Below, one piece after another: positions 2,171 to 57,079 of a stretch of DNA of 64,000 bases. Under the pieces are notes generated by a model. The model did not search any database. It had not been told where the DNA came from and was given only the letters and a program-made list of their open reading frames with translations. The translations under genes were made by a program, and so were the position numbers. How positions within the stretch are numbered: the stretch's first letter is position 1; each line of letters begins with the position of its first letter. The DNA comes from Octopus vulgaris (lineage: Eukaryota). Where the stretch lies: NCBI GenBank assembly GCA_951406725.2, contig OX597816.1, forward strand, positions 123,814,001 through 123,878,000, in the 5' to 3' direction.

Positions 2171-2417
2171 AATATATATATATATATATATATAATCAAT
2201 ATAGGGTGGCAAAAAAAATTTTGTAGAATTCTTTTGCCACCAGCGGCCTAGTAGGAAAAAATTAAATAGTCATAGACCATTTTTAAGTTTAACATCAACA
2301 ATCAAGGAACGGCCATAATAGGCCATTCACCCACTAGAAATAACAGCCAAAGCTTCAACCGCAAATAAAAGTCAATTCTGTAAACCAGGAGAAAATTTAA
2401 AAAACATTTACCCTGTA

Positions 2418-2524
2418 ATTTCTTATACGATATACCGTTTCATCTGCTGATTAATGGTAAACCAACCTGATTAAATTAAATCAAGCCAATCTTCCACAGG
2501 CCCTCAGATTCCTCAGTAAGAAAT
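2418..2524 (-). ncRNA. Type I hammerhead ribozyme (unit 1)
   Basis: Minus strand: AUUUCUUA-CUGAGGA-AUCUG-[58-nt structured insert]-CAGAU-GAAA-CGG-UAUA-UCG-UA^UAAGAAAU. Perfect 8-bp stem I, 5-bp base of stem II, stem III A-U/C-G/G-C/G.U, intact core, GUA cleavage triplet (cut between 2426 and 2425). Confidence 0.9.
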
Positions 2525-2909
2525 AGCCCAAGTCGGAACAGATATTTGCACGAGGCATTTCCGACCTTGCCAAGTTTATATCTGACCTAAAATTTTCAAA
2601 TCGTCGCACTCGCGCCAAATTTATCGGCAGCAAATAAATATAAGCCGTCGATTCCATTACGGAATTAACCAGAAAATTCATAATTAATCAATATAGGGTG
2701 GCAAAAAAAATTTTGTAGAATTCTTTTGCCACCAGCGGCCTAGTAGGAAAAAATTAAATAGTCATAGACCATTTTTAAGTTTAACATCAACAATCAAGGA
2801 ACGGCCATAATAGGCCATTCACCCACTAGAAATAACAGCCAAAGCTTCAACCGCAAATAAAAGTCAATTCTGTAAACCAGGAGAAAATTTAAAAAACATT
2901 TACCCTGTA

Positions 2910-3016
2910 ATTTCTTATACGATATACCGTTTCATCTGCTGATTAATGGTAAACCAACCTGATTAAATTAAATCAAGCCAATCTTCCACAGGCCCTCAGA
3001 TTCCTCAGTAAGAAAT
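2910..3016 (-). ncRNA. Type I hammerhead ribozyme (unit 2)
   Basis: Identical to 2418-2524, offset 492. Confidence 0.9.
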
Positions 3017-3401
3017 AGCCCAAGTCGGAACAGATATTTGCACGAGGCATTTCCGACCTTGCCAAGTTTATATCTGACCTAAAATTTTCAAATCGTCGCA
3101 CTCGCGCCAAATTTATCGGCAGCAAATAAATATAAGCCGTCGATTCCATTACGGAATTAACCAGAAAATTCATAATTAATCAATATAGGGTGGCAAAAAA
3201 ATTTTGTAGAATTCTTTTGCCACCAGCGGCCTAGTAGGAAAAAATTAAATAGTCATAGACCATTTTTAAGTTTAACATCAACAATCAAGGAACGGCCATA
3301 ATAGGCCATTCACCCACTAGAAATAACAGCCAAAGCTTCAACCGCAAATAAAAGTCAATTCTGTAAACCAGGAGAAAATTTAAAAAAACATTTACCCTGT
3401 A

Positions 3402-3508
3402 ATTTCTTATACGATATACCGTTTCATCTGCTGATTAATGGTAAACCAACCTGATTAAATTAAATCAAGCCAATCTTCCACAGGCCCTCAGATTCCTCAG
3501 TAAGAAAT
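3402..3508 (-). ncRNA. Type I hammerhead ribozyme (unit 3)
   Basis: Identical to 2418-2524, offset 984. Confidence 0.9.
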
Positions 3509-3893
3509 AGCCCAAGTCGGAACAGATATTTGCACGAGGCATTTCCGACCTTGCCAAGTTTATATCTGACCTAAAATTTTCAAATCGTCGCACTCGCGCC
3601 AAATTTATCGGCAGCAAATAAATATAAGCCGTCGATTCCATTACGGAATTAACCAGAAAATTCATAATTAATCAATATAGGGTGGCAAAAAAAATTTTGT
3701 AGAATTCTTTTGCCACCAGCGGCCTAGTAGGAAAAAATTAAATAGTCATAGACCATTTTTAAGTTTAACATCAACAATCAAGGAACGGCCATAATAGGCC
3801 ATTCACCCACTAGAAATAACAGCCAAAGCTTCAACCGCAAATAAAAGTCAATTCTGTAAACCAGGAGAAAATTTAAAAAACATTTACCCTGTA

Positions 3894-4000
3894 ATTTCTT
3901 ATACGATATACCGTTTCATCTGCTGATTAATGGTAAACCAACCTGATTAAATTAAATCAAGCCAATCTTCCACAGGCCCTCAGATTCCTCAGTAAGAAAT
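3894..4000 (-). ncRNA. Type I hammerhead ribozyme (unit 4)
   Basis: Identical to 2418-2524, offset 1476. Confidence 0.9.
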
Positions 4001-4884
4001 AGCCCAAGTCGGAACAGATATTTGCACGAGGCATTTCCGACCTTGCCAAGTTTATATCTGACCTAAAATTTTCAAATCGTCGCACTCGCGCCAAATTTAT
4101 CGGCAGCAAATAAATATAAGCCGTCGATTCCATTACGGAATTAACCAGAAAATTCATAATTAATCAATATAGGGTGGCAAAAAAAATTTTGTAGAATTCT
4201 TTTGCCACCAGCGGCCTAGTAGGAAAAAATTAAATAGTCATAGACCATTTTTAAGTTTAACATCAACAATCAAGGAACGGCCATAATAGGCCATTCACCC
4301 ACTAGAAATAACAGCCAAAGCTTCAACCGCAAATAAAAGTCAATTCTGTAAACCAGGCGATTCCATTACGGAATTAACCAGAAAATTCATAATTAATCAA
4401 TATAGGGTGGCAAAAAAAATTTTGTAGAATTCTTTTGCCACCAGCGGCCTAGTAGGAAAAAATTAAATAGTCATAGACCATTTTTAAGTTTAACATCAAC
4501 AATCAAGGAACGGCCATAATAGGCCATTCACCCACTAGAAATAACAGCCAAAGCTTCAACCGCAAATAAAAGTCAATTCTGTAAATTACAGGGTAAATGT
4601 TTTTTAAATTTTCTCCTGGTTTACAGAATTGACTTTTATTTGCGGTTGAAGCTTTGGCTGTTATTTCTAGTGGGTGAATGGCCTATTATGGCCGTTCCTT
4701 GATTGTTGATATATATATATATATATATATATATTTGTACTTTGTATATGGCAGATGTCTACTAGTGCACTCATAAAAGCTCCTATGCTACTTCTTGTTG
4801 GCTGCCATATGTTATTCATAGCCTGCCAAGTTAACTCCATGGAATTGTTATGTATGCAGTACCCTGTGTAGCATCAGATAAATA

Positions 4885-21900: not shown

Positions 21901-24059
21901 CCTTTACAAACGTAGAAATATTAACATTAATTGATTTGAAGTTTGAAGGTACTAAGGTATTAATTGTAACTTTATCATGGCAGAAATCCCAGAATTGAAA
22001 GTTAGAGCTCTAGTAACTAAAATCTGACCCCACTTAGATCAGATGATGTACTCTGAATATTAGCCAATCAGTTTGCAGAAACATCACCCCATATCAGAGA
22101 ATGTGCTATCATGCTCAAGATGTTCCCTGTGAATAGGGGTAATATAAGCAAAAGTGCACCAGAATCAGCACAGAGGTTTGAGAAAGTTCCAGAGAAGTTA
22201 AATGAAAACAGGATTCTTGGTCCCTGCTCAATCTGTATTTAAAAAATTACTTCATCTTCAATGTAATTTTCTAAGCATGTACCATGAACACAATGTCTTC
22301 ATCTCTCACCACACAAATAAATAGCCAGCCAGTTCTTAGTCAAAACAAATCAGAGTACTTAAGAAGAGAAAATTACTTGGTCACAGCTCAACCTTGGGTT
22401 AAAGGAATTGTCAGCCAGGAAGAACAGAATATTTTTCCTGCCTCTCTCTACTTCTAGCCCAATACACTACTGATAAGCATCTCTATAATTATGTAAATAT
22501 TGTGATATACTTCTGTAAAAATAAGTGTTAACCAAACAGGTTTGAAGATGAGTTTATTATGAGACAGCACGCAGCTTAGCATCATACTAACATAACAATG
22601 CACATTTAATCATAGCCACAGCACCCAAATCACATGGCCAAGGACATGAAGTGTATATAACCTTATTTTATAGTTAAGTCTAAAATAGCTAAAATCATGA
22701 AAAGTCATGAATAATAAAAGTCTGTGAAACATTGTTTATTGATAAAATAAACTGTTTTATTGAATTTTTAATTGCAAACACGCCTCAGTTGACTACTTAT
22801 TTTTTTTAATATTTAATGAACAAATTGATATTAATCATTTGAATGATATATGTATGTACGCTGTATGTGTGTGTGAAGATATGTGGCTGAGGGGTTAAGG
22901 TGTTGCACTCACAATCACAAGATCGTGGTTTCAATGTCAGAACAGGGAGGTATTATACATTGTATTCTTGGGCAAAACACTTCACCTCACACAGCTGTAA
23001 ATGAGCTAACCTGCGATAGACTGGCGTCCTGTTTAGGTCAAATATCAATAACTCAGTCCCTTATATGCCATAGGTGAGTCCACCTAATTTAAGAACTACA
23101 ATCATACAAGAAAGCACATTATGACCAACGGCATATAACAACATTCAGTTGTCTGGTTAATACAGTAATATGTACGTATGTGTGTGGTGGGGATTCAAAA
23201 CCTTGTAGCAAGTCAAGAGAGCTATTTTTGTTACCGTGTTGTAGCACAGTTGTGCTATGGCAACTCTAACCAATCAGGGCTGGGCATGTATTAATGCCAA
23301 AAGCAGTTCTCTGCACAAGAAGAGAGATGGGTGTTTTAACCAGTTAGCAGAAAAATAGCAGACAAGCAACATTGCTTCTTCAGCATGGGAACAGCCTCTT
23401 TGTTTTTCACACCAACTTTGCACTGCCAGTTCTGAATTATAACAGCCCTCAGTTTTGATCACATCATGAGCAGTATATTTTCAAATCTTTCACTGACTCA
23501 TGCACATACGCAGCTACTTTCATATTACTTGTCAGCTCTTGATATCCTTTAATAAATCAAAATATTTTGTATAAAAATGCCTAATATTTTCATTACACAT
23601 GCTTCTCAAAAGCTCCCTTAGGTGAGAACCAGGTGAGTTGAGCCAAAAGGAGAGTTGATCCATCCCCTAGAACTACCACTTGCATTCCATAAAGAAAAGT
23701 TCAAACACCCTCTGTTGGTCACATATCTTTCTTTTCAGTTAAGGCAAATAGTTACATAACAACTCTGGGGACATGAGGGGAAGGAAGAACTCTAAATTGC
23801 TCAAGAAAGTGGATTTCAGAGTTAGAGGTAAAACCCTTTCTATCATTTACCTAGGGACAGTTATTTCTATGGTATTGTAGGCAACATGTAGCCTATGCAT
23901 TGTAGATTTTGATTGAATTTGATACAACTGCTTTGAAGTGAGGCAAAGTACATGTCAAAATGGCCAACCTGAGGGAGAGACGAGCCATTGATCATTAGGA
24001 GACTAGATCCATGGCTCACCTGTCCTTTTCTCTAAATTAAGATACCAATAGTATCAATA

Positions 24060-25400
24060 ATCGAAATATATAAGCTGGGGAAGATACGGACGGTCATGAT
24101 GCTGAGAGAATTGAAGGATATGGAAATCAGGCATAACCCACCAGAGGTGAAAGCAGCCAGGAAGTGGAAAGCAGAAGCAGAAACTGACGACATCTTGTCT
24201 TCTCTTATACACAGAGATATGGTGGGAGCAACGCATAACTATCGGAAAGGACTTGGTTTTGGTGCAGATCAGTTCAGACCGTTTGCAAGCATGATGTGGA
24301 GTGAACACAGATCTGTTGTTAGCAACAGAATCAAAACAAGAGAAGCAGAGAAAAGAGAGCTTCATTTGATCCGATGTTTTCATCAAGGTCAGATGACGAG
24401 ATGGGAAGAACATGTTGTTGAGAGGAAGATAAGTTGGGATTAGATATGGAAGTGGACGACATCTCAGCTGAGTTTCCTGATTCGTTCATCTTATGATGTT
24501 TTGCCATCACCTACGAATCTAGTAAGATGGAACGTCTCAGAGAATGACATCTGCAAATGCGGAAGGGTTGGTACACTGAAACATATTCTTTCCGACTGTT
24601 CATTAGCATTGAACAGGTATACATGGAGACACAACTTGGTCCTTAAGGTTATCTTCAATGCTATAAAGAACCAAATTCATCTCAACAACACTGAGAAAAA
24701 AACTGTTAAAAGTACCATCTAGAGATTTTGTTACCTTCGTGCGACCAGGTCAGCGGATCCGTTTCAAGAAGAAGATCAAGAAACTTCCTGTGAGAGATGA
24801 AAAGTGGAACGGCTATTGGGAGGTAACAGTAGATTTACCTGGGTGCCAGGTTTTCTTTCCCATCCCAATTACGAAAAAACCAGATATTTTGATGTGGTGT
24901 GAAAGAAAGAAAGTTGTAAATATAGTCGAGGTAACGGTTCCTCGGGCTCGAAAATTTAACCGTTATGTAAACCTCCTCAAGGAATGTGAAGACGCAGGCT
25001 GGAAAGTGGAACATTTTCCAATCAAAGTCGGATGTAGAGGGTTTGTTGGACACAGTGTGAGACAACTGTTGTTATCGCTAGGCCTAACTCATCGTAAAGT
25101 CAATACCACCATGACTGATATTCAATCTACAGTGGAGAAGGCTAGCCACTGGATTTGGTTAAAAAGAGATGATGTGCGATGGCTAGAAGGATATTGAGCT
25201 TAATTTGATAACCAGCTGATCTAGCAAGCAGGGCCTCATATCAGTGAGGGGGGCCCGGTGTGCATTGATGCCATCGAGAGGTAGGCCCCGAAACAGTGTG
25301 CATTCTCTCCTGATGACCCCATACACTTGCTGGCTTCCAGTATACGGAGCTTTTGACTGGTAGCACTTGCATGTGCAAGTTGTTTGCAAGACATATACAT
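24060..25400 (+). pseudogene. 3' part of a HERO-like (R2-group) non-LTR retrotransposon: CCHC knuckle plus REL endonuclease, disrupted
   Basis: ORF pieces 24096-24443, 24444-24722 and 24739-25197: QGQMTRWE..ERKISW*IWKW..LSFLIRSSYDVLPSPTNL, CKCG..GTLKHILSDC, RYTWRHN, KKPDIL..VEVTVP..KFNRY, VGCRGFVG..EKASHWIWLKR. Confidence 0.8.
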
Positions 25401-25413
25401 TTTTTTTCAGACG

Positions 25414-27190
25414 ATGCCACAGATCTACAGAAGGAAATCAAACCATGGGAGTGATGTGGTATTGCTTAATCAAGCAGCAAAAGCAATCCAAGAGAAGAAC
25501 GGTGTTTGGGCTGCTGCATGAGCCTTTGATGTAGACCAAATGACACTCAGATATTTTATGGATAGACAGAAAAGTGATCCTCAAGGAGAAAGTGGATATA
25601 AGAATTGTCATCTGAAGAATATAATATTTCTTCCAGAAATGGGAAGCAATCTAGCAGATCATATAAAAATATTAGCAGCAAGCTATCAGGGGCTTTCCAA
25701 AGGCAAATGTCAAAGCTTATCATATGAATATGCTGTAAAGAACTGAACTGATGTTCTTGATAATGAGAAAGCAAACAAAAAGCAAGGGGAATTTTCTGGT
25801 TGGGCTTCAAAAGTCACCTTAACCTTTCCATTCACAGCCCAGAGGCAACTTCATAAGCATGAGCTACTGCATTTAATCATCATACTGTGGGCCTATCTTA
25901 CAATAACCTTGCCAAAGTAATGGATCAGCACAGATCTGAAGCACAGGACATATACAATCTTGATGAAACAGGATGCCATACTGTACAAAAGCCTGGAACC
26001 ATCATCACTGAAAGGGACGTCAAGCAAGTTGGCTTAGTCACATTGGGTGAAAGAGGTGAAATGGTGACTGTTGTTAACACTATCAACGCTGGTGGTGGAG
26101 TGCTTCCGCCCTTTCTGACTTTTCCCCGCATAAACTATCATAATCATTTCAAACATGGAGCACCAGTGAGCTCAAACAGAGCAACCACCAGATCAGGATG
26201 GATCAATGAAAAAACTTTCGTGAAGTACCTCAGACGTTTTGTGAAACAAACATGTTGCTCTCCAGACTGAAAGGTGTTGCTCATTCTAGATAATCTTGAA
26301 GTTCATGTTTACAAGCAGCAGTTGGAAGGTAAAGGCAAATGGCATTGTGCTGTTATCAATCCCCACATATACATTTTATAAACTTCAACCCTTAGACAAG
26401 GTGGTGTATGGACCATACAAAAGAGCCTGCTTACGAGTGATGGATGGGTGTCCATCTATGATGTTCCTCTGTTAGGGAACAAAGCTCATGTGTTGGCATG
26501 TGTGCCATGCAATATTCTTGCTGGTTTTCAGAGTGCAGGAATTCTGCCATTCAATAGTGACATATTTTCAGATGGAGACTATGCATCAGCAGATGTCACA
26601 GACAGAATATCATGCAGTTTCAGACCCAAATGGAAACACAGCAGGCCCAGCAGGGAACACTATTGTAAACACTGTGTCTGGTATTATAACTCCGGATACT
26701 GATCCATCATCTTCATATGCATCACCCAGAGATATAAGACCTTTACCAAAAGAAACCCCTGGAAGATGAAAGCTTCCAACAGAAAGCTAGGTTGTGCTTA
26801 AATACTTATTGAGCCAAGAAATGCCCTGTCACAGCAGAGAAATCTCTATTCACAAAGACCACAAGAATCATGAGCAAAATGATGCTATAAGATGACTGTA
26901 CATCATCTGGTGAAAGTGAGTCCAAGATGGAAATAGTTTATGATGACACTGATGACTCTCGAGGAGACGACCAGAGTATCATTGAAAGTGATTTTGTCAT
27001 AGTCAAAGTCCCTGGGAAAAAATCGAGAATCTTTCACTACATTGCTAGAGTTGATGCCTTTGAAGGTGATGAGTTTGAAGGAGTTTTACTTCATCAGGTG
27101 TTGAGCATGAACGACCATGCTACATTTGTTGTGGATGCCAAGGATGAAGCACTTTATTCAAAGTCAAATATCACAATCACGTGAACATTA
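25414..27190 (+). pseudogene. Decayed pogo/Fot1-like (DDE_1, CENP-B-type HTH) DNA transposase
   Basis: MPQIYRRKS start at 25414; IYNLDETG, GERGEMVTVVNTINAGG, SGWIN, LLILDN, LQPLDKVVYGPYK; many stops and frameshifts. Confidence 0.8.
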
Positions 27191-48767: not shown

Positions 48768-49887
48768 ATATTTGTTGTGCAAGATTTTTTATGTGAAGTC
48801 GTGTGTTGAAACAGATATTGTTATATTTCGGAATGGTCATATTGCCAGTTTAGCCAATAAAAACACACGCACTATATATTTGGTGTTATTTTGCTTCAGT
48901 GATATTTATTTTTTACATTAATCTTAATCTTATTTCGGCCAAAGTTCTTTCGTCACACTCCTGTGACCGCATCAGTGGTCCTTTGTTTTCTTCTCACTTA
49001 CTTGTGTCTCTCCTTACTAACCGTCAGCCATTTTGTATTTCTATTGTATGTCTTCATTTGCGCATGCTTATATCTCTATGTGCGTCTATGTTTATTTAGT
49101 GTGTGTGTGTGGGGGATGCCTGTAATATTTGTATCTTCTGGTTATATACATTCTTGTAATTTGTATTTTGTTTTTGTTGTTGTTGCTTTTGTTCTAATTT
49201 TATTCATGTGTTTACATCCACCCATTATTATCATTACATATGCTTGTATGTATGTATAACAACAATATTAGTAATAATAATAATAAATCTAATCGAGAAA
49301 AAAAAAAAAAAAAAGAATATACATATACATATATATATATATATACATACATATACATATACATATATATATATATATATACATATATACACACATATAT
49401 ACACATATACATATATATACACATATACATATATATAGATATTCATTTCTATTTCTTTAATTACCTGTGTATTTATTATGTTTGCAGGATCCACTATTGT
49501 CATATGTTGTGGTGTGCGCTATTGCTCCATTCTAGTTTTCTATTCAGGCTAGGTTTATTTTCTATTATATGTGTAGCTTCTGTAATTTGTCTAATTGTTG
49601 CATCTGTTCTATGTGTGGACAATATCTTAATCTCTATGTTATTGATTGATCCCCCGTGTTCTTGTTCGGCGTGTTGGTACAGAATCGATGAGCTTTTACC
49701 TTCCTTGAGTTGTCTCCAATGTTCATTCACCCGCTCACCAATGCTTCTTGCAGTTTCCCCTACGTATGTTACTGTCTTGTTACTGCATCGTCCCTCTATA
49801 CATCTTATACTATAGACCACATTTCTGGCTTTACAGTTCGTTTGTGGGCTAAATCTACATACAGTGCAATAGTTATCCGTACAGAGA
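48768..49887 (-). repeat. 3' pseudo-LTR (EN-coding end, 3'UTR and extension into ORF start)
   Basis: Near-identical to 53356-54475; includes the first ~24 codons [23 protein letters not shown] before (TA)n. Confidence 0.9.
48937..48981 (-). ncRNA. Non-canonical hammerhead-like motif in pLTR
   Basis: GGACCA-CUGAUG-CG-GUCACA-GGAG-UGUGAC-GAAA-GAAC-UU-UGGCC: 6-bp stem II, CCA/UGG plus GG/CC stem I, minimal stem III, but A9 replaced by CG. Confidence 0.5.
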
Positions 49888-52800
49888 GTTCTACTAAAAG
49901 GATAGATTCTACCAATTATAGATCTGATAGGGTTGCCTGGCTTTTCAACAACCTTAATTCTTAGTTTAAGTTTATCTAGGGTCCTTCTAAAGCGGTACGC
50001 TAGTTCACCTCCAGGGGTGGTGTCAACGAACATGACACTCTGGTATTTATGGCTATCATACCAAGAGTTGGCCTTCCTTATTTTCTTTTTGTCCTTTCTA
50101 TAGTGTTCCATGACTTGTTCCTGTAGAGTGGGCAAATCCCATTCCTATCATTACATAATATATTATCAAATTTCTTCATGGCTCCTTTGTATACTCTGAT
50201 CCTTTCTTTATGGCTGTAACCTGAGAACTGCATGCGGTGAATGAAATACTGTATGTGTCTCTTTAATTCTGTAGGCTCGCACATGCGTGACACATTTCTC
50301 ATTATTCTGACGAGGTCTGCCATCAAAATATTGAATTTGGCATTGCCCGCAATGGCTGAGTTCCGGTGGATCAGGTATTTTGAGGCCATAGGTTTTGCAT
50401 AGTATGAATGAAGGATTTGGGTTTTATTTTTCACAATTTCTAGCCAGAGTTCAGTGTCTAGTACTGGTAGTCTATGGTTGGGGTGTTTAGTGGGGTAGTC
50501 TATTGTGACCTTAATACTCTGGTGGATGGAGTTAGCTATTTGCTGGATGCTCTCCATAGTATTAGTTTCTATTACTATATCAACAGTACTTTCTTGTGGG
50601 GGTGCCTTTACTACTATATTGATATCATCAACATAGCGAGAGTACATGTTTACGAGTATGGATTTCTGCAGTAGGCATTCTTTAAGCCTTCTGTCCCACC
50701 ATACCATGAAGAGGTTGGCCACATCACCAGCGATACTAACACCGATGGCTGCCCCCTCGTCCTGGGCATATATTTTATTATTAAATTTAAATGTGTGGCC
50801 TTTTAGGGTAACTCTTATACTAGCTCCTAGTGCATGTGCGATCATTTTCTTTACCTGATGGACATTTGCGGGGCTCCGTATGGCTCTGGTCCATCCGCGC
50901 CATCTTTCTATATGTGTCTTCCTAGCCATAGAAGTAATTGTAGGCGGTCTACCTCTTAAACATCTACTGGGGCAGAAACTACTAAGATTATGTTTATCTA
51001 AGTATTCACTATTATATGTCAGTCTAAGTAGGAGGCCCAGTTCTTCTGTGTCGACATTACAGAACTCCACCTGGCTCTCGTTGATCATCTCCACGCACTT
51101 CTCCACTGCAAAATCTACGTCAATCGATGGGTATAGGGATACCACATCCATGCTACCTACTATACATCCTGTCAAGTCACAAGTTTTGTTACAGTCACTG
51201 ATCCTGCTTAGGAGATCTTCTGTGCTGTCACATACATCAGGTGACATCCTGATTATAGGGCGTATGATCATTGAGAGGAAGTAGGAGATTCTGTAATTGC
51301 TAGCGATATTCGCTCCACAGACTGGTCTTGTTGGTGGTCCTGCTATAGGGTCAGTAAAACCTTTATGGTCCTTGCGAAGTCCATACAGTGCCGGGATATC
51401 ATTGTTCCAGGCTTGGAAATTCTTTGCAGTACGTTTCTGAGGTCCCAGAACAATTGTCCACATCATCATGTGGGCATTGAGGACCTTTTCTCTCTCCTCA
51501 TGCGCCTGTACAGTTGTTACTTTTGTATTGGCGATATGAGGTTGCATTGCCTGGATGTAGTTCGGTAAGCTGTCTATTGACATCCTGCCGGACTTATCCG
51601 TGGGAAGGCATATCACCTCTCCGTTCCTCGTGCGCTGAATGAGCTTCTGTAGGCCACATGCAGGTTTAATCCCTAGTTGTTGGGCATCTGTCTTATTCTG
51701 TCTCTGTCTCTTAATGTATAAACCTAAAATCTGTCTAAGTTTGGTCCTAGCTATAGTGAACTGTGCTTCCATGTGGTCATTAGTACGTCTTGGGATGTAT
51801 ACCCTTTTGTTGAAGGGTAATGTTGTTGGATAAATTCGGTTCATGCAGTAAGTTTTGTCGCATACGTTGAAGAATTGAGTGTCAAAGGGATGGGTATACA
51901 TGTCAATGGTCTCTCTAGGGTTATCTTCATTATCGTTACTGTTTCCAACATCAGCCTTCCTATTATTATTATCACCATTACCACTACTACTACTACTACT
52001 AGTATTCCTATTACCACCACAACTATCACTACTATCCTCATTACTACTTCTACTGTTACCATCACCACTACTACTACCACTATTATTGTTATTACCTTTA
52101 TTCCTACCATTGCCATTATTACTATCATCGCTAGTGATATATTCATTGTTCCTGTTTCTGGTATATGTGTTGTTTATATTAGTGTTGGGTTTTATGTCTG
52201 TCTGTTGGTCCCTGTCAATCCCCCTGTTGCGGTCGTTATTTTTGTTCCTATGAGTATTGTTATCTGTTTCAAGTCCGCTGACTCCCTGTCCAAGGATCCT
52301 GTTGCATTCAACTTTATTCTCCATCGTGACCCCTATGACACAACTTTTATTCGTGTTTTTGTGACTATGGCTATCTGTGTGTGTGTTTGTGTGTCGGTTC
52401 TCCCTATAATTGTTGTTGTTGTTGCTGTTGTATACGATTTTTCTCTCTCTGTTTGTGTTTTTGTTTTTGTATCTATTGTTTGTGTCTATGCATACATTTT
52501 TTCTATTGTTATTGTTGTTGTCGCTGTTAGGGTTCGTGTTGTTGTTGTTGTTGTTGCCGCTGTTAGGGTTCGTGTTGCTTTTGTTGCTACGGTTGTTATT
52601 GTTGCGGTCATTATTGTTTGTGTTGTTGTTGCTGCGGTTAGTGTTTTTCGCGTTGTTGTTGTTGTCGCAAGTGTTGTTGTCATAGTATCTATTTAAATTC
52701 CAACGTATTTTTGTGAACGACTTTTCAATCTCGGACAGGCATTTGATGGTATTCACTTTACTATACACTGCATACTTTGGTGGTAGTTGAAGTATCGATA

Positions 52801-53428
52801 TTTCATCTGGGTCCGTTGTTACTCCCCCATAGATGTTCGCTTCATTGTCTTTATTGAACTCTTCTGGTAGTAGCACATCTTCCATAATAATTCCATTTAT
52901 TGTATCTGGATACTTCTGCTTTTCTTCCTTTGCGAGCTCATATTGACGTTTCTGTTTCAACCACGATAACTTCCTCTTAAAATGGATATTGCATTGGTGT
53001 ATTACATGTCTGTTTTCTTCATATATTATATCCATTATTAAGGTTTTCTCCTTTCGTGTCGTGATACTTTTAATTTCTTTTAAAAATATACGTTTACGCT
53101 TCTCTTGTTCGCTCAGCTCTCTGTATATTCTATTTCTAATATTTACCATTAGCGTCCTTTTTAGTCTTTCCGCTTGTCCGTTAGTGAGGTCAAGCCGTTT
53201 AACGTTGGCTGTGACCTTGTTGATACATATCCTGGACGAGACACATTGTTTTATAAAACGAAGCTGTTGCGTTGTCACAGTTTTCTTTAGGCAACAAAAT
53301 ATAGTGTTCTTCAGCATCTTGCAAGCCTGGCTGTGGCTCACGTTAGTACGTTTAAATATTTGTTGTGCAAGATTTTTTATGTGAAGTCGTGTGTTGAAAC
53401 AGATATTGTTATATTTCGGAATGGTCAT
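49500..53428 (-). CDS. PLE polyprotein: N-terminal domain, Asn-rich linker, reverse transcriptase, Cys-rich linker and GIY-YIG endonuclease (single 1-nt frameshift near 50086-50090; ~1309 aa if repaired)
   Basis: [52 protein letters not shown]; C-x4-C-x2-C-x7-C linker; VVY..C..C..YVGETAR...R.NEH...QH...H, RQITEA, LNRKLEW. The plus-strand copy reads through the frameshift. Confidence 0.92.
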
Positions 53429-54475
53429 ATTGCCAGTTTAGCCAATAAAAACACACGCACTATATATTTGGTGTTATTTTGCTTCAGTGATATTTATTTT
53501 TTACATTAATCTTAATCTTATTTCGGCCAAAGTTCTTTCGTCACACTCCTGTGACCGCATCAGTGGTCCTTTGTTTTCTTCTCACTTACTTGTGTCTCTC
53601 CTTACTAACCGTCAGCCATTTTGTATTTCTATTGTATGTCTTCATTTGCGCATGCTTATATCTCTATGTGCGTCTATGTTTATTTAGTGTGTGTGTGTGG
53701 GGGATGCCTGTAATATTTGTATCTTCTGGTTATATACATTCTTGTAATTTGTATTTTGTTTTTGTTGTTGTTGCTTTTGTTCTAATTTTATTCATGTGTT
53801 TACATCCACCCATTATTATCATTACATATGCTTGTATGTATGTATAACAACAATATTAGTAATAATAATAATAAATCTAATCGAGAAAAAAAAAAAAAAA
53901 AAGAATATACATATACATATATATATATATACATACATATACATATACATATATATATATATATATATACATATATACACACATATATACACATATACAT
54001 ATATATACACATATACATATATATAGATATTCATTTCTATTTCTTTAATTACCTGTGTATTTATTATGTTTGCAGGATCCACTATTGTCATATGTTGTGG
54101 TGTGCGCTATTGCTCCATTCTAGTTTTCTATTCAGGCTAGGTTTATTTTCTATTATATGTGTAGCTTCTGTAATTTGTCTAATTGTTGCATCTGTTCTAT
54201 GTGTGGACAATATCTTAATCTCTATGTTATTGATTGATCCCCCGTGTTCTTGTTCGGCGTGTTGGTACAGAATCGATGAGCTTTTACCTTCCTTGAGTTG
54301 TCTCCAATGTTCATTCACCCGCTCACCAATGCTTCTTGCAGTTTCCCCTACGTATGTTACTGTCTTGTTACTGCATCGTCCCTCTATACATCTTATACTA
54401 TAGACCACATTTCTGGCTTTACAGTTCGTTTGTGGGCTAAATCTACATACAGTGCAATAGTTATCCGTACAGAGA
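53356..54475 (-). repeat. 5' pseudo-LTR (5'-truncated tandem copy of the element 3' end)
   Basis: Direct repeat of 48768-49887; overlaps the ORF start codon at 53428. Confidence 0.9.
53525..53569 (-). ncRNA. Hammerhead-like motif in 5' pLTR
   Basis: Identical to 48937-48981; ~100 nt upstream of the ORF ATG. Confidence 0.5.
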
Positions 54476-56375
54476 TATCCCGGCACTGTATGGACTTCGC
54501 AAGGACCATAAAGGTTTTACTGACCCTATAGCAGGACCACCAACAAGACCAGTCTGTGGAGCGAATATCGCTAGCAATTACAGAATCTCCTACTTCCTCT
54601 CAATGATCATACGCCCTATAATCAGGATGTCACCTGATGTATGTGACAGCACAGAAGATCTCCTAAGCAGGATCAGTGACTGTAACAAAACTTGTGACTT
54701 GACAGGATGTATAGTAGGTAGCATGGATGTGGTATCCCTATACCCATCGATTGACGTAGATTTTGCAGTGGAGAAGTGCGTGGAGATGATCAACGAGAGC
54801 CAGGTGGAGTTCTGTAATGTCGACACAGAAGAACTGGGCCTCCTACTTAGACTGACATATAATAGTGAATACTTAGATAAACATAATCTTAGTAGTTTCT
54901 GCCCCAGTAGATGTTTAAGAGGTAGACCGCCTACAATTACTTCTATGGCTAGGAAGACACATATAGAAAGATGGCGCGGATGGACCAGAGCCATACGGAG
55001 CCCCGCAAATGTCCATCAGGTAAAGAAAATGATCGCACATGCACTAGGAGCTAGTATAAGAGTTACCCTAAAAGGCCACACATTTAAATTTAATAATAAA
55101 ATATATGCCCAGGACGAGGGGGCAGCCATCGGTGTTAGTATCGCTGGTGATGTGGCCAACCTCTTCATGGTATGGTGGGACAGAAGGCTTAAAGAATGCC
55201 TACTGCAGAAATCCATACTCGTAAACATGTACTCTCGCTATGTTGATGATATCAATATAGTAGTAAAGGCACCCCCACAAGAAAGTACTGTTGATATAGT
55301 AATAGAAACTAATACTATGGAGAGCATCCAGCAAATAGCTAACTCCATCCACCAGAGTATTAAGGTCACAATAGACTACCCCACTAAACACCCCAACCAT
55401 AGACTACCAGTACTAGACACTGAACTCTGGCTAGAAATTGTGAAAAATAAAACCCAAATCCTTCATTCATACTATGCAAAACCTATGGCCTCAAAATACC
55501 TGATCCACCGGAACTCAGCCATTGCGGGCAATGCCAAATTCAATATTTTGATGGCAGACCTCGTCAGAATAATGAGAAATGTGTCACGCATGTGCGAGCC
55601 TACAGAATTAAAGAGACACATACAGTATTTCATTCACCGCATGCAGTTCTCAGGTTACAGCCATAAAGAAAGGATCAGAGTATACAAAGGAGCCATGAAG
55701 AAATTTGATAATATATTATGTAATGATAGGAATGGGATTTGCCCACTCTACAGGAACAAGTCATGGAACACTATAGAAAGGACAAAAAAGAAAATAAGGA
55801 AGGCCAACTCTTGGTATGATAGCCATAAATACCAGAGTGTCATGTTCGTTGACACCACCCCTGGAGGTGAACTAGCGTACCGCTTTAGAAGGACCCTAGA
55901 TAAACTTAAACTAAGAATTAAGGTTGTTGAAAAGCCAGGCAACCCTATCAGATCTATAATTGGTAGAATCTATCCTTTTAGTAGAACTCTCTGTACGGAT
56001 AACTATTGCACTGTATGTAGATTTAGCCCACAAACGAACTGTAAAGCCAGAAATGTGGTCTATAGTATAAGATGTATAGAGGGACGATGCAGTAACAAGA
56101 CAGTAACATACGTAGGGGAAACTGCAAGAAGCATTGGTGAGCGGGTGAATGAACATTGGAGACAACTCAAGAAAGGTAAAAGCTCATCGATTCTGTACCA
56201 ACACGCCGAACAAGAACACGGGGGATCAATCAATAACATAGAGATTAAGATATTGTCCACACATAGAACAGATGCAACAATTAGACAAATTACAGAAGCT
56301 ACACATATAATAGAAAATAAACCTAGCCTGAATAGAAAACTAGAATGGAGCAATAGCGCACACCACAACATATGA
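54474..56375 (+). CDS. 5'-truncated inverted copy of PLE ORF (RT core plus GIY-YIG), frame intact
   Basis: Open from 54474 ([13 protein letters not shown]...) through the 590-aa ORF 54603-56375; differs from the minus copy by one extra A (no frameshift) and an E>K change in LK(E/K)GKSS. Confidence 0.88.
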
Positions 56376-56898
56376 CAATAGTGGATCCTGCAAACATAAT
56401 AAATACACAGGTAATTAAAGAAATAGAAATGAATATCTATATATATGTATATGTGTATATATATGTATATGTATATGTGTATATATGTGTGTATATATGT
56501 ATATATATATATATATATATATGTATATGTATATGTATGTATATATATATATATGTATATTCTTTTTTTTTTTTTTTTTTTTTTCTCGATTAGATTTATT
56601 ATTATTATTACTAATATTGTTGTTATACATACATACAAGCATATGTAATGATAATAATGGGTGGATGTAAACACATGAATAAAATTAGAACAAAAGCAAC
56701 AACAACAAAAACAAAATACAAATTACAAGAATGTATATAACCAGAAGATACAAATATTACAGGCATCCCCCCCCCACACACTAAATAAACATAGACGCAC
56801 ATAGAGATATAAGCATGCGCAAATGAAGACATACAATAGAAATACAAAATGGCTGACGGTTAGTAAGGAGAGACACAAGTAAGTGAGAAGAAAACAAA

Positions 56899-56943
56899 GG
56901 ACCACTGATGCGGTCACAGGAGTGTGACGAAAGAACTTTGGCC
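56899..56943 (+). ncRNA. Hammerhead-like motif in inverted copy's pLTR
   Basis: GGACCACTGATGCGGTCACAGGAGTGTGACGAAAGAACTTTGGCC. Confidence 0.5.
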
Positions 56944-57079
56944 GAAATAAGATTAAGATTAATGTAAAAAATAAATATCACTGAAGCAAAATAACACCAA
57001 ATATATAGTGCGTGTGTTTTTATTGGCTAAACTGGCAATATGACCATTCCGAAATATAACAATATATATATATACTTGC

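Follow-up and report, generated by a model that had tools for sequence, protein, structure and literature searches.

Structure of the insertion

The window analysed here is a stretch of 64,000 nucleotides of the Octopus vulgaris genome (GenBank assembly GCA_951406725.2, contig OX597816.1, positions 123,814,001 to 123,878,000 of the forward strand). At 2172–4734 it contains an insertion that consists of a tandem array of a 492-nt repeat and an inverted fragment of the same repeat, with (TA)n adjoining both outer ends. Unit coordinates of the repeat are counted so that window position 2193 is unit position 1. The array and the inverted fragment are referred to below as arm A and arm B. The features of the insertion, read from the sequence (for the first hammerhead copy also from allele counts in 102 loci), are as follows.

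2172–2193, no strand: left (TA)n target, the putative primer of arm A
2193–4357, plus strand: arm A, 4.4 tandem 492-nt units from start point A (about unit 1)
2193–2293, plus strand: stretch of the array from unit 1 to just before start point B (unit 102)
2419–2523, minus strand: predicted type I hammerhead, copy 1, predicted cut 2426/2425
2911–3015, minus strand: predicted hammerhead, copy 2
3403–3507, minus strand: predicted hammerhead, copy 3
3895–3999, minus strand: predicted hammerhead, copy 4
4358–4585, plus strand: re-copied segment of 228 nt, unit 457 to 192, an exact repeat of 4125–4352
4583–4710, minus strand: arm B, the inverted fragment, which runs from start point B (unit 102) to unit 226–229
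4583–4585, no strand: 3-nt microhomology joining arms A and B
4709–4734, no strand: right (TA)n target, the putative primer of arm B

The first-pass annotation described 4583–4710 as the reverse complement of 2294–2421, joined to the array through a 3-nt microhomology. Both statements are confirmed: the match is exact (100% identity) and cannot be extended on either side, and 4583–4585 is common to the fragment and the array. The fragment is equally similar to 2786–2913 and 3770–3897, and because three stretches of the array match equally, its source unit is not identifiable. It had also been placed 4 nt past the predicted ribozyme cut. The fragment does adjoin the cut; because of the 3-nt overlap with the forward array, the true end of this arm is a range, 4–7 nt 3' of the cut.

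Arm A halts at unit 197, which is 36 nt before the cut, and its plus strand would be the cDNA. The re-copied segment halts 41 nt before the cut. In 4125–4585 arm A is thus seen to halt at 197, jump back, re-copy 228 nt and halt again at 192; the two halts, both just before the cut, resemble stutters in other copies. Together, the array end and the inverted fragment make up a perfect palindrome of 91 bp whose spacer measures 34 nt. No ORF of at least 130 aa lies inside the array, and one simple-repeat frame overlaps its first 59 nt.

Predicted hammerhead ribozyme

Every 492-nt unit carries on the minus strand a type I hammerhead motif, which was read by hand from the sequence; the array comprises four complete units with the motif in each. 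Its parts are a 7-bp stem I, which is weak (−9 kcal/mol), CUGAGGA, a long stem II, GAAA, a 4-bp stem III and the GUA triplet, and the cut is predicted between window positions 2426 and 2425 (unit 234/233). An Rfam scan of the window gave nothing at the gathering score and no hammerhead at E-values up to 10. Minimum-energy folds of the unit contained stems I and II, and stem III was not formed. Over 102 loci the catalytic core is invariant except for N7, where all four bases occur, and H17 (A in 78 loci, C in 23, U in 1, never G); this test of conservation is weak, because the search anchor dictated nine positions and the family is young. Loop 3 (window 2431–2434) reads UAUA in 64 of the 102 loci and UGCA in 38. 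Both variants are palindromic, as expected of double-hammerhead cleavage.

Copies of the repeat and mapping of arm ends

A similarity search with the 492-nt unit gave 177 matches at 40 scored places. Exact patterns of (TA)n followed by unit 102 (end B) and by unit 1 (end A) gave 231 and 110 matches, respectively, and the reversed control gave none for either. The discovery set comprised 94 loci from the first 100 listed B ends, leaving out the window's copy and three matches on C8; three matches share one locus. The second, held-out sample comprised 40 loci on C9–C23, from 100 listed A ends, with one locus already included and five on C24 left out. A library of 114 distinct units served to map the arm ends, since diverged copies yield false ends when compared with the window unit only: in locus L073, what looked like an exact stop at 233 became 249 with the library. 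Hand edits removed two arms (L117, cut by the locus edge, and L125 A, mis-chained), kept only the long B arm of L112 and placed the stop of L125 B at 219. The latter stop, one of the 65 zone ends reported below, later turned out to be a template deletion, not an end. Ends were counted per position traversed for each arm, and the count, as defined, takes in only arms that start at (TA)n.

Among the 94 discovery loci, 70 are head-to-head insertions that pair an A arm with a B arm, 19 are single-armed and 5 are complex, so the inversion in the window is the normal form of the family. Over both samples, two-armed head-to-head insertions in (TA)n with one arm per fixed start make up 107 of the 134 other copies. 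The earlier reading of the inverted fragment as a second cDNA is supported, the fragment being arm B of such a pair, and an inverted arm is no rare event in this family. A (TA)n-like anchor was seen by inspection on at least one arm in 39 of the 40 loci picked by similarity, the pattern-picked loci having been selected for (TA)n. The tail of the family is one-sided and about 100 nt long, and an overlap of 3 nt between the arms is the commonest (12 of 62 simple junctions).

A perfect palindrome with a short spacer, such as the one at the end of the window's array, might also be produced by DNA-level fold-back or by later rearrangement of a one-armed insertion. We consider this extremely improbable, given the presence of exactly one A and one B end in 70 of 94 unbiased loci. 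For short co-terminal copies it is refuted, because each arm has sequence absent from the other: arm A has the tail, and arm B usually extends further inward.

With its tandem, non-coding, dispersed and multicopy units and a predicted hammerhead in each, the 492-nt repeat appears to be a new member of the non-LTR retrozymes, and its layout, as judged from sequence, agrees with that of a non-autonomous Penelope-like element. Variants recurring with a period of 2, 3 or 5 units inside one arm were observed in L039, L134, L063 and L043; multimeric circles or periodic source arrays are possible sources of them. Poly(A) lengths per unit were too noisy for phasing the arms.

Arm ends at the predicted cut

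Arm ends were compared between unit 209–233, the 25 nt 3' of the cut, and unit 234–258, the 25 nt beyond it. In the discovery sample, 46 of 168 ends fell in unit 209–233 against 9.4 expected (46 of 171 before re-chaining), and 6 fell in unit 234–258 against 8.2 expected. This window was chosen after seeing the discovery data and was therefore fixed in advance for the held-out sample. There it contained 13 of 61 ends (3.9 expected), or 19 of 76 (4.8 expected) after diverged copies were re-chained, and unit 234–258 contained 7 (3.9 expected, P 0.1). For the pooled 134 copies the counts are 65 of 244 ends against 14.1 expected before the cut (ratio 4.6) and 13 against 12.0 beyond it. The maximum ratio for the best 25-nt window in 5000 null runs was 2.7.

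In a free two-level fit the best window is unit 212–232, with the upper edge at 232–237 within 3 log-likelihood units; the fitted edge (232) coincides with the predicted cut (233/234) to 1 nt. Five arms stop exactly at 232 and none was mapped to exactly 233. Four arms were mapped to 235–237, of which three fit 232–233 via microhomology or filler; the arm of L091 passes the cut by 2–4 nt and is incompatible with 232–233. A second pile-up, chosen post hoc at unit 330–361, contained 15 ends against 13.4 expected.

The first-pass annotation had proposed to tabulate the truncation points of other copies and predicted enrichment at or near 2421–2425. Such enrichment is found on the 3' side of the cut, with background beyond it; of the 244 arm ends, 9 lie at the corresponding positions, unit 229–233, where 2.5 would be expected (P 0.001). 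Truncation is thus enriched near the cut, in a zone (unit 212–232) and not at a single point. The proposal that the second cDNA ran nearly to the 5' end of a self-cleaved linear RNA gains support from the pooled ends, from the held-out sample and from four sequence subgroups, in each of which the zone excess is present. The junction in the window had further been offered as indirect evidence of cleavage in vivo. Such evidence exists as a statistical property of the copies; one junction is weak evidence, the excess over chance stems from the population of copies, and a second family, described below, failed the same test. Since about 51 of the 65 zone ends are in excess, the window copy has about four chances in five of being a run-off product.

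The excess is present in both arms, whose lengths at the cut zone are 100 nt apart: among the arms reaching 209, first-pass stops in the zone were made by 20 of 82 A arms and 29 of 111 B arms. Later passes contributed 16 zone ends against 4.2 expected. By loci, 50 of 134 have a zone end, compared with 13 and 16 in the flanking windows. Deletions resuming at the cut were found at one locus (L125), where a 3-nt direct repeat explains the deletion equally well. At the A-arm end reiterated fillers of 7–9 nt were observed near 212 in L083, L086, L089, L097, L098, L104 and L116, and near 232 in L165. They suggest a stalled enzyme that slips repeatedly.

The sequence at unit 204–229 is AT-rich with short palindromes, and the ends could accumulate there if it offered easy microhomology to opposed arms. 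Certain junctions do recur at unrelated loci, with unrelated flanks on inspection (197/223 three times, 214/224 and 212/222 twice each), and AT content has a small positive effect on arm ends. When AT content and local folding energy are taken into account, the zone effect nevertheless remains, with a rate ratio of 5.8. Many of the zone ends have a partner arm whose own end is far off, and 4 of the 19 single-arm insertions end in the zone. This reading is largely refuted by the latter, and we regard it as very unlikely.

The same footprint would be expected from any fixed 5' end, including a transcription start near unit 233 that owes nothing to the ribozyme. A matrix built from nine U2 upstream elements of the O. 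vulgaris genome found no U2-type promoter element in the 492-nt unit, where it scored at most 2.5 against 18.7–27.3 on U2, although this is a crude test. The agreement of the fitted edge with the cut to 1 nt also speaks against a transcription start, which we hold to be highly improbable.

A second hammerhead family and possible stalling at stem I

An unrelated family with a 355-nt unit (L233:3852–5247, L234–L293) has a hammerhead with U3 and A8, the two-start layout and a 44-nt tail. Its stem I has a 30-nt extension (−35 kcal/mol). The same test was applied to 58 of its loci, with the exact cut at v221 and the window set beforehand on an estimated v218. In the 25 nt 3' of the cut there were 5 of 96 ends against 5.8 expected, and 7 of 91 against 5.5 expected after re-mapping, so that the test failed. 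A weak excess (scan P about 0.05) was seen 21–56 nt before the cut, where the stem I extension has its base. The arm-end footprint of the 492-nt family does not generalise as such to this family. Either its RNA is rarely cut or is clamped shut, or the reverse transcriptase stalls at the base of stem I in both families.

The second option has a counterpart as an explanation of the 492-nt family. The RNA would be uncut or circular, the enzyme would stall where stem I has its base or where a protein is bound to the ribozyme, and the trailing enzyme would catch up, whereupon the arms would join. The commonest stops of the 492-nt family are 212 and 226 (9 ends each), the latter being the stem I base; the base of the long stem I extension, and not the cut, is also where the weak excess of the 355-nt family is found. 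In the Penelope-like element Poseidon the ribozyme is protein-assisted, and unprocessed RNA is the main substrate in vitro, according to the portions of PMC11167929 considered here. However, stem I of the 492-nt family is weak, and stronger hairpins of the unit show no excess (6 ends vs 12.7 expected, 9 vs 11.9, 9 vs 11.7 and 9 vs 16.7, the first and last of these entries overlapping the start points). Moreover, 13 ends lie at unit 228–232, inside stem I, and the rate falls immediately past 233. We therefore consider stalling at stem I unlikely; it retains some weight because the modal stop at 226 is the stem I base in the 492-nt family.

Template of the two arms

Of the 42 loci whose arms have 15 or more diagnostic sites in common, 37 show no difference between the arms, compared with 2.7 for shuffled pairs; in L045 the arms are of two haplotypes, differing at two sites. 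Since both arms share one haplotype, this points to derivation of the A and B arms of a copy from a single RNA template. The ends of the two arms are also related. In 26 of 70 loci they are no more than 30 nt apart in absolute position, against 7.7 by permutation, and outside the ribozyme zone arms are co-terminal in 11 of 45 loci against 1.9. Where both first-pass ends are located at 190–237, arm A is short of arm B in 20 of 23 cases, with 2 ties and 1 reverse. The window copy, in which B ends at 226–229 and A at 197 and 192, fits this rule.

Unit-specific variants common to both arms, in register or offset, were observed in L037, L110, L043, L073, L103 and L125; for L037 gene conversion is a possible alternative. 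The variants shared in these six loci show that, for long arms, some templates are multimers whose units differ from one another. Most arms read through the cut site, and hence uncut multimers or circles probably served as templates as well. A model in which the template is purely a monomer circle sits badly with the shared variants and with the excess in later passes; circles as such are possible.

Candidate partners and other elements of the window

At 48771–57062 the window contains a Penelope-like element with similarity to a reverse transcriptase and, at the C-terminus, a GIY-YIG domain (weak Pfam matches, E-value about 0.001, under the cut-off). It is tandem plus inverted in (TA)n, only its left end carries a tail, of about 47 nt, and its two-end layout is as in the 492-nt retrozyme. 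The 492-nt unit shares no sequence with it, nor with the 30 GIY-YIG loci compared out of 150 listed, the genome having thousands of candidates. A young GIY-YIG family (L209, L214 and others) has many open frames of 781 aa and two recurring (TA)n ends; it was ruled out by sequence as the partner of the 492-nt repeat. Frames at 24036–25197 and 25863–26270 resemble retrotransposon and DNA-transposon remnants by eye and have no Pfam match at an E-value of 0.001.

Comparison with known systems

The comparisons in this section use extracts of the cited papers. Metazoan non-LTR retrozymes, a class also described in PMC4209133, have RNAs of about 170–400 nt and repeats of 150–450 bp and are thought to move via RNA circles (PMC7229834). 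The 492-nt repeat shares with them non-coding tandem units, low GC content, one type I hammerhead per unit, dispersal as dimers to multimers and a link to Penelope-like elements (PMC7229834; bioRxiv 10.64898/2026.07.22.740005), and it differs in the 492-nt unit and the long stem II. The extracts favour circular intermediates or local tandem amplification, whereas the ends of the 492-nt family point to linear cut RNA and multimeric templates. A term search of the text of the same two papers turned up neither inverted two-arm insertions nor an analysis of ends.

Insertions of Penelope-like elements are described as having an inverted copy, a one-sided tail and a bias to (TA)n, and the role of their hammerhead is stated to be unclear (Craig et al. 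2021, PMC8557442). For Poseidon, the sections consulted report that reverse transcription starts at two internal sites, that both strands are extended and that a dimer is predicted; ribozyme cleavage was dispensable in vitro, and RNA-seq read ends at the cut were not found (Frangieh et al. 2024, PMC11167929). Like these elements, the 492-nt family has an inverted 5'-truncated copy, a tail at one end, (TA)n targets and two internal starts with both strands extended. Unlike them, as far as these extracts go, it has no ORF and a tail of about 100 nt instead of 30–40, and each of its starts is used once per insertion, on opposite strands and with one haplotype. Its ends are enriched at the ribozyme cut, unlike what is described for Poseidon in vitro.

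In R2 elements with an HDV-like ribozyme, the ribozyme cut sets the 5' junction, according to the part of the work considered (Eickbush et al. 2013, PMC3774820). The 492-nt family would follow a similar logic, but with a different ribozyme and enzyme; R2 joins one cDNA to target DNA, whereas here two cDNAs are joined to each other.

The element class and the inverted layout are already known. In the literature searched, with supplements and most subscription journals outside the search, no report was found that the ends of Penelope-like elements or retrozymes are enriched at a hammerhead cut.

In the twin priming of L1, attributed to Ostertag and Kazazian in 2001, the two target strands reportedly prime on one RNA, and joining by microhomology yields an inversion. 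The second primer site in L1 is variable, the arms do not overlap and there is a poly(A) tail. The 492-nt family has two fixed starts and overlapping arms, so that the mechanism would be similar and not identical; because of the overlap, one stretch of the RNA must have been copied two times.

Proposed mechanism

We consider it likely that arm B arose when a Penelope-type reverse transcriptase, primed at the right-hand (TA)n, ran almost to a 5' end made by the predicted ribozyme. The steps from nicking and internal priming to run-off, stutter and joining are what we infer from the observed layout, shared haplotype and distribution of ends. A Penelope-like enzyme, probably a dimer, would nick both strands of (TA)n, and two cDNAs would be primed at the two internal sites, A and B, on one RNA. 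The template would be a linear RNA with a ribozyme-made 5' end, either a monomer or a partly cut multimer. The B enzyme would come within 0–20 nt of this end. The A enzyme, about 100 nt behind at the start, would halt some 10–25 nt earlier and often stutter. The two cDNA 3' ends would then pair via 1–4 nt, and each would be filled in on the other. Run-off of this kind would account for about a fifth of the arms (51 of 244 in excess).

It is quite possible, while short of probable, that the inverted repeats characteristic of Penelope elements are made in this way, with an enzyme dimer copying one cut linear RNA twice at the same time from two fixed internal starts. The leading enzyme would run off the 5' end left by the ribozyme, and the trailing one would collide about 10–25 nt behind it and stutter.

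That about a fifth of the cDNA arms end just before the cut, even after several passes, is hard to obtain from an endless circle, and RNA cut by the ribozyme into a linear form likely serves as a template in living cells. If the collision reading is true, the hammerhead would be the terminator and the joining point of integration, and the arm ends found in genomes would provide an in vivo assay of ribozyme activity. For an assay of the Poseidon type, the 492-nt family offers a template, two start points and a stopping order, A before B.
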